Virus record (IMG/VR): IMGVR_UViG_2534681978_000009
Coordinates: 1 to 10,696 of that record
Direction: 5' to 3' (one strand)
DNA: 10,696 nucleotides
Source of the DNA: a virus
Lineage: Duplodnaviria > Heunggongvirae > Uroviricota > Caudoviricetes
Shown here: positions 9,238-10,364 of the stretch, one piece after another
How the letters are laid out: each line of letters begins with the position of its first letter
Numbering within the stretch: the stretch's first letter is position 1
Translations under genes and position numbers: made by a program
Notes under the pieces: model-generated
What the model was told of the DNA's origin: nothing
The model's database searches: none
The model's input: the letters and a program-made list of their open reading frames with translations, nothing else

Positions 9238-9356
9238 GGCATAAACAACAGAATAAACACTGCACTGTGTATTCATTCCAACGAGTGAATACACGGAGCA
9301 ATGTCGCTCGTAACTAAACAGGAGCCGACTTGTTCTGATTATTGGAAATCTTCTTT

Positions 9357-9383
9357 GCCCTCCAGTGTGAGGGCAATTTTTTT
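9357..9383 (+). terminator. Terminator-like hairpin immediately upstream of the coiled-coil gene RBS
   Basis: GCCCTC-CAGTGT-GAGGGC followed by AATTTTTTT, ending 4 nt before the GGAGG Shine-Dalgarno of the gene starting at 9396. Confidence 0.4.
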
Positions 9384-9395
9384 GATGGAGGATAT

Positions 9396-10364
9396 ATGAG
9401 TGAAGTAACAGATTTAGTTGTTATTGAAAAAGCAAATGCAATGACTGTATTTCAGTCTGCCGACCAGATTGAAGAAATCCTTCAAAAGGTTGAACGTGAA
9501 GTTATGTCCTTTGTGCCTGATATCACAACGGCAAAGGGCAGAAAGGAGATCGCTTCTCTGGCGTATAAAGTTGCGCAGACGAAAACATATCTCGATGGTC
9601 TTGGCAAAGACCTTGTTGCTGAACTGAAGGAAATTCCAAAGCTAATTGATGCCAACCGCAAGACAGTGCGCGATCGCCTTGATGAACTAAAAGCCAAGGC
9701 GCGCCAGCCTCTAACTGATTATGAGGAGGAGCAGGCACGGATTAAAGCCGAAGAAGAAGCTAAGGCAGCAGCTGAAGCTCTCGCAAAGCAAATTGAGTCT
9801 GACCATGAAATAGCGATTTTGATGGATCGCGAATTTGACCGCCAAAGAGAAGAGGCAAGACTCAAAGCGGAGCAGGAAAAGCGAGAGCATGAAGAACGCT
9901 TAAAAAGAGAGGCTGAAGAGAAAGCCAGAGCTGAAGCCGAAGCAAAGGCAAAAGCCGAAATTGAAGCAGCAGCAAGGCGAGAAGCAGAAGCTAAGGCAGC
10001 AGCGGAACGTGCAGAGCGTGAACGTATTGAAGCCGAGCAACGAGCACAGCGCGAAGCAAAAGAGGCAGCAGAACGAGCTGAAAGAGAAAAGCAGGCAGCA
10101 ATTGAAGCAGAACGCAGAAAAGCACAGGAGGAGGCTGAACGAATCCGTCGCGAGGCTGAAGCAAAAGAGCAAGCCAGAATAGCAGAAGAAAAAAGAATCA
10201 AGGACGAAGAAGAGCGTAGAGCAAAGGATAAAGCTCACCGGAAAGAAGTAAATAACAAAATACTTGCTGACCTTATCAAGGTTGGTGCATCAGAAGATGT
10301 TGCTAAAAATATCATAACAGCCATCGTAAAAGGCGAAGTATTCGCAACAAAAATAACCTACTAA
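9396..10364 (+). CDS. Hypothetical protein with a long E/K/R/A-rich predicted single alpha-helix or coiled-coil (TolA-like low complexity) between small N- and C-terminal domains
   Basis: 322 aa from the ATG at 9396, with GGAGG 4 nt upstream; the track ORF's 18-residue N-terminal extension is rejected. Residues ~115-280 are almost entirely E, A, K, R, Q (for example REAEEKARAEAEAKAKAEIEAAARREAEAKAAAERAERERIEAEQRAQREAKEAAERAEREKQ). Ordinary-composition N-terminal (~110 aa) and C-terminal (~45 aa) domains. Confidence 0.7.
   Translation: MSEVTDLVVIEKANAMTVFQSADQIEEILQKVEREVMSFVPDITTAKGRKEIASLAYKVAQTKTYLDGLGKDLVAELKEIPKLIDANRKTVRDRLDELKAKARQPLTDYEEEQARIKAEEEAKAAAEALAKQIESDHEIAILMDREFDRQREEARLKAEQEKREHEERLKREAEEKARAEAEAKAKAEIEAAARREAEAKAAAERAERERIEAEQRAQREAKEAAERAEREKQAAIEAERRKAQEEAERIRREAEAKEQARIAEEKRIKDEEERRAKDKAHRKEVNNKILADLIKVGASEDVAKNIITAIVKGEVFATKITY

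Follow-up and report, generated by a model that had tools for sequence, protein, structure and literature searches.

We analyzed a stretch of 10,696 nucleotides (nt) from a Caudoviricetes virus (IMG/VR record IMGVR_UViG_2534681978_000009, positions 1 to 10,696; hereafter the window). The window covers the immunity and early-left region of a lambdoid phage in the orientation of pL, and the phage records closest to it are HF4s, CUS-3, Sf6, N7 and HK633. Genes and signals follow one another in the order cI, pL, candidate nutL, N, membrane protein, PreS/tL2a region, 322-amino-acid (aa) gene, cIII and kil (Table 1); annotated relatives and Pfam matches for cIII and Kil confirm the synteny from N to cIII and kil. 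Our subject is the 188-base-pair (bp) spacer between the 149-aa membrane-protein gene and the 322-aa gene. A preliminary description had taken this spacer for a regulatory-looking leader, in which translation of a small open reading frame (ORF) would melt a terminator hairpin and be coupled to the start of the 322-aa gene. Comparison with phage lambda points elsewhere: positions 9296-9383 are, with high probability, an allele of the small RNA (sRNA) PreS (LPR1), ending at the terminator tL2a inside the N-antiterminated pL operon. The terminator tL2a, the block of conserved DNA labeled bsq4 in Sf6 and the sRNA PreS (2024) are themselves already known.

Table 1. Features in and around the spacer (window positions), with the basis of each assignment.
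Feature	Position	Strand	Basis and remarks
cI-type repressor gene	7275-7925		HTH_3 and Peptidase_S24 (Pfam)
Candidate pL promoter	8015-8043	+	TTGACC-17-TAAATT; promoter scan and analogy with the Sf6 and mEp234 annotations
Candidate nutL	8090-8130	+	boxA-like GCTCTTTAAC at 8090-8099, boxB-like hairpin at 8113-8130; resemblance and analogy with Sf6 and mEp234
N-type antitermination protein gene	8444-8749	+	annotated as N in HF4s, 98% identical
149-aa membrane-protein gene	8758-9207		
First intrinsic terminator	9212-9237	+	AGGCCG-catagt-CGGCCT, then TTATTTTT; predicted ΔG -9.7 kcal/mol
Conserved RNA hairpin	9257-9304, core 9262-9299	+	repeat finder, fold, covariation; overlaps the PreS 5' end
Probable PreS (LPR1) sRNA gene, full-length ~88 nt	9296-9383	+	homology to lambda; primers
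Small ORF, 32 codons	9301-9399	+	MSLVTKQEPTCSDYWKSSLPSSVRAIFLMEDI; inside PreS, judged incidental
PreS seed	9331-9348	+	TGTTCTGATTATTGGAA(A); corresponds to the lambda lpr1 seed deletion (primers P970/P971, P838/839, P888/889)
tL2a intrinsic terminator, probable PreS 3' end and Hfq-binding tail	9355-9383	+	scan, fold, Sf6 and mEp234 annotation
322-aa gene	9387-10364	+	including GGAGG at 9387-9391; ATG at 9396, coding 9396-10364

LPR1, later renamed PreS, was revealed by RIL-seq during lambda infection (Silverman, Nashef, Bruner, Noy and Melamed, bioRxiv 10.1101/2024.10.31.621285; hereafter Silverman et al.) and is also listed in a review (PMC12197685). [quoted passage not shown] Its seed pairs with the dnaA-dnaN junction and opens the ribosome-binding site of dnaN, raising DnaN about four-fold, and PreS represses alaS about two-fold; both effects were verified by compensatory mutations (Silverman et al.). 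Deletion of the 18-nt seed results in less phage DNA and a lower spontaneous plaque yield, in an Hfq-dependent manner (Silverman et al.).

The spacer of the window matches lambda positions 33911-34087, between ral and ea10, with 96% identity, and positions 9262-9383 are ~97% identical to the lambda ral-ea10 spacer; the stretch is present in 331 phage records, lambda included. The primers for cloning and in vitro transcription of lambda LPR1 (Table S5) begin at GAGCAATGTCGCTCG and finish at the T-run, and map to 9296-9383, exactly 88 nt. The window allele equals lambda at 86 of these 88 positions, both differences lying after the terminator stem, and the processed form of ~68 nt would begin near 9316. 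The seed is identical to that of lambda. It contains the lambda mutation sites M1 (9335-9337) and M2 (9344-9346), and the end of the seed deletion is ambiguous by one A (9347 or 9348). When the window PreS was paired in silico with the E. coli dnaA-dnaN junction, the predicted duplex reached -41.4 kcal/mol, against -21.6 ± 3.8 kcal/mol for shuffled sequences, none of 1000 being as strong; the target, the dnaN leader at this junction, is found in 5417 of 5426 complete E. coli genomes. The predicted folds of the 88-nt RNA (z = -3.8) and of the whole spacer (z = -5.25) are likewise more stable than those of shuffled sequences.

The window shares with lambda the place of PreS in the pL operon between N and cIII, the terminator tL2a, the hairpin upstream of the sRNA and the complementarity to the dnaN leader. 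The neighbors differ, being the membrane-protein gene and the 322-aa gene in the window, whereas in lambda they are ral and ea10. In addition, the RNA tail is U7 in the window and U6-A in lambda, position 9375 is A in the window and G in lambda, and the window has an intact extra terminator (9212-9237) that is degenerate in lambda. By analogy with lambda the PreS region is regulatory, acting in trans on host mRNAs. The regulatory character proposed in the preliminary description therefore stands, as that of an sRNA, and its assignment as a leader of the attenuator type does not.

The GCCCTC/GAGGGC hairpin with its T-run, which had been recognized earlier as a terminator, is indeed one, of the intrinsic kind. 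In the GenBank record of Sf6 the identical hairpin is labeled 'tL2A, homology to lambda', the mEp234 record annotates two rho-independent terminators in the equivalent spacer, and lambda tL2a has the same hairpin, GCCCTCCAGTGTGAGGGC, with a T-run and no difference of substance. The stem consists of eight pairs (9355-9362 with 9369-9376) around the loop CAGTGT (9363-9368) and is followed by U7 (9377-9383); its conserved core is GCCCTC (9357-9362) and GAGGGC (9369-9374), followed by AA and then T7. The stem-loop folds beyond shuffled sequences (ΔG -13.2 kcal/mol, z = -4.6), and its pairs are nearly invariant, with variation limited to the loop and to positions 9375-9376. The tL2 terminator cluster was reportedly described by Luk and Szybalski in Virology in 1983, and in the classical account lambda tL2a is an N-suppressible terminator only, not the end of an sRNA. 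The 3' end of LPR1 is now equated with lambda tL2a (Silverman et al.).

Scanning positions 8700-9700 yielded four terminator-like sites, where 1.0 is expected, and two of these (9212-9229 and 9355-9376) flank the element described here. The first terminator stands directly 3' of the 149-aa gene and outside the conserved block, so that two tandem terminators precede the 322-aa gene in the window phage; the lambda counterpart of the first is degenerate (GCC...GGC) and overlaps the ral stop codon. Both intrinsic terminators are located 3' of a candidate nut site and of an N gene on the same strand, as expected of N-suppressible terminators. The T-run of tL2a is polymorphic across the homologous loci, with 5 to 8 T that are at times interrupted by A as in lambda; its length shifts the frame of anything read through tL2a, and the polymorphism may alter terminator strength and Hfq binding. 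In read-through RNA, AUCUUCU (9348-9354), the CU-rich portion of the PreS seed region, is predicted to pair with GGAGGAU (9387-9393), the Shine-Dalgarno sequence of the 322-aa gene, around the terminator stem. This fold reaches -18.2 kcal/mol, compared with -13.2 kcal/mol for the terminator alone, and the pairing is present in the centroid structure; it could damp translation of the 322-aa gene in cis, and is not conserved in phages with other downstream modules.

Upstream of the sRNA we located the perfect 9-bp inverted repeat of the preliminary description, GTGTATTCA (9267-9275) and TGAATACAC (9286-9294) separated by 10 nt. Such a repeat exceeds chance, as perfect 9-bp inverted repeats with a loop of 3-20 nt occur in 1.2% of shuffles of 9208-9420. 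It forms the core of a longer hairpin with arms at 9257-9278 and 9283-9304 and a 4-nt loop. As RNA the hairpin has 20 pairs and two 1x1 mismatches and folds at -24.2 kcal/mol (z = -6.1; none of 200 shuffled sequences folds as well), and because two conserved G-U pairs lie within it, the helix is continuous only as plus-strand RNA. Covariation was computed on an alignment of 81 sequences (A1): 94% of the cells are paired, eight pairs are changed on both sides, and none of 500 shuffles reaches the observed covariation. All eight compensated pairs come from a single, rare lineage (L014, L030, L056, L073 and L079; for example L030, 8452-8500), in which CTATAGCAGA...TCTGCTATG replaces TGTGTATTCA...TGAATACACG without a shift in register, and PreS and the ACGAG at the end of the loop are unchanged. 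The variant stem folds into a hairpin of its own (-15.9 kcal/mol). The compensated changes represent one evolutionary event, and are suggestive of conserved pairing rather than statistical proof of it. G9296, the first nucleotide of PreS, is part of the last pair of the 14-bp core, which places the 5' end of the sRNA at the base of the helix. A role of the hairpin as a terminator on the minus strand was considered and rejected, as the T-rich run lies in a non-conserved flank and there is no converging gene.

For the distribution of the element, a 20-nt seed pattern retrieved at least 120 IMG/VR loci and 34 loci from species-representative genomes. After chance 20-mer matches had been dropped, at least 136 homologous loci remained, corresponding to 110 distinct sequences among the matches listed. 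Across these matches a block from 9262 to 9374 is conserved at 91% or more per column, with the exception of loop position 9365, and conservation collapses on both sides of it, where the block is flanked by at least five unrelated upstream and at least three unrelated downstream contexts. The 113-bp 'boundary sequence' bsq4 of Sf6 (GenBank AF547987) corresponds to window 9262-9374, exactly our independently derived block; the Sf6 label is descriptive, denoting conserved DNA between mosaic modules, and proposes no RNA product. Inside PreS, the variable sites among the matches listed are 9315 and 9325 (unpaired in the predicted fold), the loop positions 9363-9365, 9375-9376 and the end of the T-run, which, judged against the modeled fold, is the pattern of a structured RNA.

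As the first search had fixed the seed, a second scan was anchored on the upstream hairpin. The seed proved identical in 110 of the 118 loci found in this way, with single substitutions in seven. At one IMG/VR locus (L163), the only such locus of the 118, the hairpin is joined straight to a cIII-type leader (...GGAGCACACCATGCAATATGCC...) and PreS and tL2a are missing. Two other IMG/VR loci keep hairpin and PreS up to ~9350 and then continue into a different 3' part (...A.TCC.TGATAGTCT..CCGCTCT) in place of the tL2a stem; judging by their sequence, these would be PreS bodies with another 3' end. Of 5426 complete E. coli genomes, 2239 (~41%) carry the block of hairpin and PreS, in up to six copies per genome and at 20 places on plasmids, and no annotated feature underlies it in the ten E. 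coli RefSeq matches listed.

Some matches were set aside. Those in Ruegeria, Moraxella and a metagenome-assembled genome of Myxococcales have only the 20-mer in common with the window and are due to chance. Matches in Pseudomonas, Shewanella, the Bacillus group and other genomes have the same pattern as lambda and were excluded from the host range. They include L132, L139, L152 and others among L125-L158, in Shewanella canadensis and Pseudomonas spp. (on contigs of ~48.4-48.5 kb in both) and in Neobacillus, Kitasatospora and Chromatium; the coverage of these contigs is often low where stated, and the presence of the lambda pattern in such unrelated bacteria looks like contamination with lambda control DNA. 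A 48,361-bp record named 'Campylobacter phage CJLB-4' carries the lambda version of the small-ORF peptide.

The small ORF itself is present as first described, with a GGAG (9295-9298) 2 nt before its ATG and a TGA (9397-9399) that overlaps the ATG of the downstream gene (9396-9398) in an ATGA. Its length is not above chance, however, as an ATG ORF of at least 32 codons arises in 28% of shuffles of 9208-9420. In the precursor both GGAG and AUG are predicted to be paired inside the 20-bp helix (ΔG -24.2 kcal/mol), and in mature PreS the AUG lies 5 nt from the 5' end and lacks a Shine-Dalgarno sequence. The first 21 residues of the peptide are invariant, with synonymous sites equally invariant; from codon 22 the peptides diverge, this codon, in the hairpin loop, specifying S, N, D, G, Y or K. 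Rather than at third codon positions, substitutions are located in the loop of the hairpin and immediately 3' of the stem. The last five to six codons and the stop lie outside the conserved block, and among the matches listed the predicted peptides are 23 to more than 47 residues long and have unrelated tails. We compared the junction with the 322-aa gene in 15 distinct relatives carrying the same gene, examining 198 nt. The ATGA overlap occurs in 7 of the 15, and in 4 the stop precedes the ATG by 13-28 nt. In a further 4 the small ORF is in frame with the 322-aa gene, three of them having no stop in the 198 nt and one stopping 57 nt past the ATG. The frame differences are due to T-runs of 6, 7 or 8 and to insertions and deletions in the spacer; in lambda the small ORF ends 17 nt short of ea10 and does not overlap it. 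No Pfam family matches the peptide, and exact look-up of small-ORF peptides returned only automatic calls ('hypothetical' or 'putative membrane protein') in metagenomic viruses. A peptide cluster headed by an unrelated 138-aa protein was dismissed as a clustering artefact of very short sequences.

These observations bear on the attenuator proposed in the preliminary description, in which ribosomes on the 32-codon ORF would open the terminator hairpin and, at the TGA, start anew at the ATG of the 322-aa gene, which the TGA overlaps. The required parts do exist, namely the ORF, a hairpin inside it and the ATGA overlap, and the ATG at 9301 is kept in 109 of the 110 distinct sequences among the matches listed. 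The layout of a short ORF over an intrinsic terminator ahead of a gene is also that of the trp, his, pheA and pyrBI leaders of enterobacteria. Compared with these, however, the window lacks an efficient ribosome-binding site, a conserved peptide end and regulatory codons, and the frame in which its ORF lies with respect to terminator and gene varies among relatives. With the start site buried, an ORF of chance length, a stop and C-terminus that vary, an overlap in fewer than half of the relatives and none in lambda, substitutions that track RNA structure rather than codon position, and a natural allele with ATA in place of ATG, the model is already largely refuted by comparison, and translational coupling through the ATGA is not supported either. 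The operon moreover has its own antitermination in N and the candidate nutL, and the minimum-free-energy and centroid folds show no conserved alternative pairing of the antiterminator type, although no systematic search was made for one. We consider attenuation by the small ORF extremely improbable. Only slightly less so, and still very unlikely, is a dual-function RNA after the example of SgrS/SgrT, in which PreS would base-pair and in addition encode a peptide of 29-32 residues. The frame is open in most alleles, its first 21 residues are invariant, and automatic pipelines sometimes call a gene here, even a 'putative membrane protein'. Against this, the invariance of the first 21 codons covers synonymous sites and so indicates constraint on the RNA, a usable ribosome-binding site is missing, neither the sequence nor the length of the C-terminal third is conserved, no Pfam family is matched, and the peptide is, by its sequence, too weakly hydrophobic for a membrane helix. 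The small ORF and its coupling to the downstream start are almost certainly incidental, by-products of the RNA sequence and of the mosaic joint of this phage.

Two further explanations do without translation. The repeat GTGTATTCA-N10-TGAATACAC might be a DNA operator through which a dimeric protein controls the downstream gene, as a perfect 9-bp dyad, rare by chance, ahead of a gene would suggest. Yet no promoter-like site is found nearby in the scan of 8700-9700, and phages that differ in repressor, N protein and downstream gene have the identical dyad. The variant lineage exchanges eight stem pairs while keeping complementarity, so that pairing and not sequence is conserved, and the helix runs through G-U pairs that fit plus-strand RNA alone. 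An operator has, in our judgment, next to no likelihood. A little more weight, though still small, is due to the idea that the block is kept only as a linker for homologous recombination, a 'boundary sequence' beside a passive, N-suppressible terminator, and has no function as RNA. The Sf6 record labels 9262-9374 a boundary sequence and 9355-9383 tL2A, and the homology edges of hundreds of phages coincide with both ends of the block. A linker, however, needs no particular sequence, whereas here the seed is identical in nearly all hairpin-anchored loci and the pairing of the hairpin is kept through eight double changes; in lambda, in addition, a stable Hfq-bound RNA with specific targets is made, and deletion of its 18-nt seed has a phenotype. 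Linker and sRNA are not mutually exclusive, as a conserved sRNA would double as a recombination hotspot.

On the reading of the spacer as PreS, transcription from pL would run past N and the membrane-protein gene, and polymerases that lack antitermination would halt at the first terminator or at tL2a. The 3' end made at tL2a, a GC-rich stem followed by U7, would serve as the Hfq-binding tail. The 5' end at ~9296 would stem from a cut in the operon transcript at the base of the conserved 20-bp hairpin, and a second cut near 9316 would give the 68-nt form and free the seed. Seed and the CU-rich stretch after it would then pair with the host dnaA-dnaN mRNA junction and open the dnaN ribosome-binding site; the resulting increase in beta clamp would help phage DNA replication, and alaS would be repressed by the seed. 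N-modified polymerase, in turn, would pass tL2a and allow expression of the 322-aa gene, cIII and kil. In this operon N antitermination, not a leader peptide, governs read-through of the terminator. The scheme resembles that of CpxQ and SroC, enterobacterial sRNAs that are bound by Hfq and are cut from longer transcripts, within operons or in 3' untranslated regions: the terminator is common to sRNA and mRNA, the 5' end would be made by cleavage, and a shorter form carries the seed. PreS differs in that its terminator sits in the middle of an antiterminated phage operon and that a long conserved hairpin marks its 5' boundary.

We infer that this hairpin serves as a mark or guide for the cleavage by which PreS is freed from the operon transcript; alternatively, it could be a stabilizing cap for the upstream mRNA. 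One possible elaboration, which we put forward tentatively and regard as rather unlikely as a whole, is that hairpin and PreS form a portable cassette, with the hairpin as maturation signal, a nuclease specific for double strands, such as RNase III, cutting near the base of the helix, and staged exposure of the seed. Cleavage by RNase III is geometrically plausible in the modeled helix: a cut at 9295/9296 would fall 13 pairs from the loop, and with the matching cut on the opposite arm, offset by 2 nt, the released hairpin would retain a stem of 11 bp. Wherever such a cassette had been placed by recombination, the PreS 5' end would be set free from the long, antiterminated pL transcript. The first five nucleotides of PreS are predicted to pair with the 5' arm of the hairpin in the precursor and with part of the seed in the 88-nt form; in the 68-nt form the seed would be free, so that its exposure would be staged by processing.

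Several points weigh against the identification with PreS or limit it. The near-universal retention of the ATG at 9301, with ATA in a single sequence, is one, although it is expected anyway because the ATG lies in conserved RNA, and translation is still possible by sequence alone. A search of Rfam with the complete window, at E up to 1, matched no family, and as PreS has no Rfam family there is no independent confirmation by a covariance model. All functional claims for the window allele are carried over from lambda at 97% identity. The text of Silverman et al. gives neither an origin for the PreS 5' end nor an upstream hairpin; the processing step comes from the present analysis. A weak promoter of PreS itself is formally possible, the scan having been one for the consensus. 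Finally, N antitermination should suppress tL2a, which sits uneasily with the persistence of a tL2a-ended RNA late in infection. With regard to the promoter, no sigma-70-like site was found in 8700-9700 by the consensus scan, which together with the lytic-only expression in lambda fits an origin of PreS from pL. The best candidate found by eye for a start at 9296, TGCACT-N18-GTGAAT, was rejected, as it has 6 of 12 matches and lacks the A2 and T6 positions.

The remaining features of the window concern the setting of the operon. A strong terminator with a T-run (7924-7943) is found 3' of the cI-like gene. Around the promoter-like site at 8015-8043 lie the TTAAGTT-type dyads AAACTTAAGTT (7969-7979), AATTTAAGTTT (7989-7999) and AAATTTAAGCC (~8039-8049), which probably are the left operators of this immunity type (window 7960-8050). 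The fold of the boxB-like hairpin of the candidate nutL is by itself not significant, and the Pfam N_peptide match of the N gene is weak (E = 0.006, below the family cut-off). Transcription of the 322-aa gene from pL needs read-through of tL2a. The protein has no Pfam family, and its homologs are labeled inconsistently, as Sf6 gene 33, 'TolA' or 'antitoxin, similar to phi80 Agt (Gam antitoxin)'.

Taken together, the case shows how an ORF that lies within a structured small RNA can mislead a reading made from sequence alone. The analysis places an allele of PreS in a P22-like/Sf6-like phage with different neighbor genes, and joins the 'boundary sequence bsq4', tL2a and the sRNA PreS as one and the same object. 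The biology that remains of interest is the conserved, covarying hairpin at the 5' boundary of PreS and the occurrence of a tL2a-ended RNA despite suppression by N. The block is carried by ~41% of complete E. coli genomes, with PreS unannotated in the matches listed, which bears on annotation pipelines and on the tuning of host replication by prophages.

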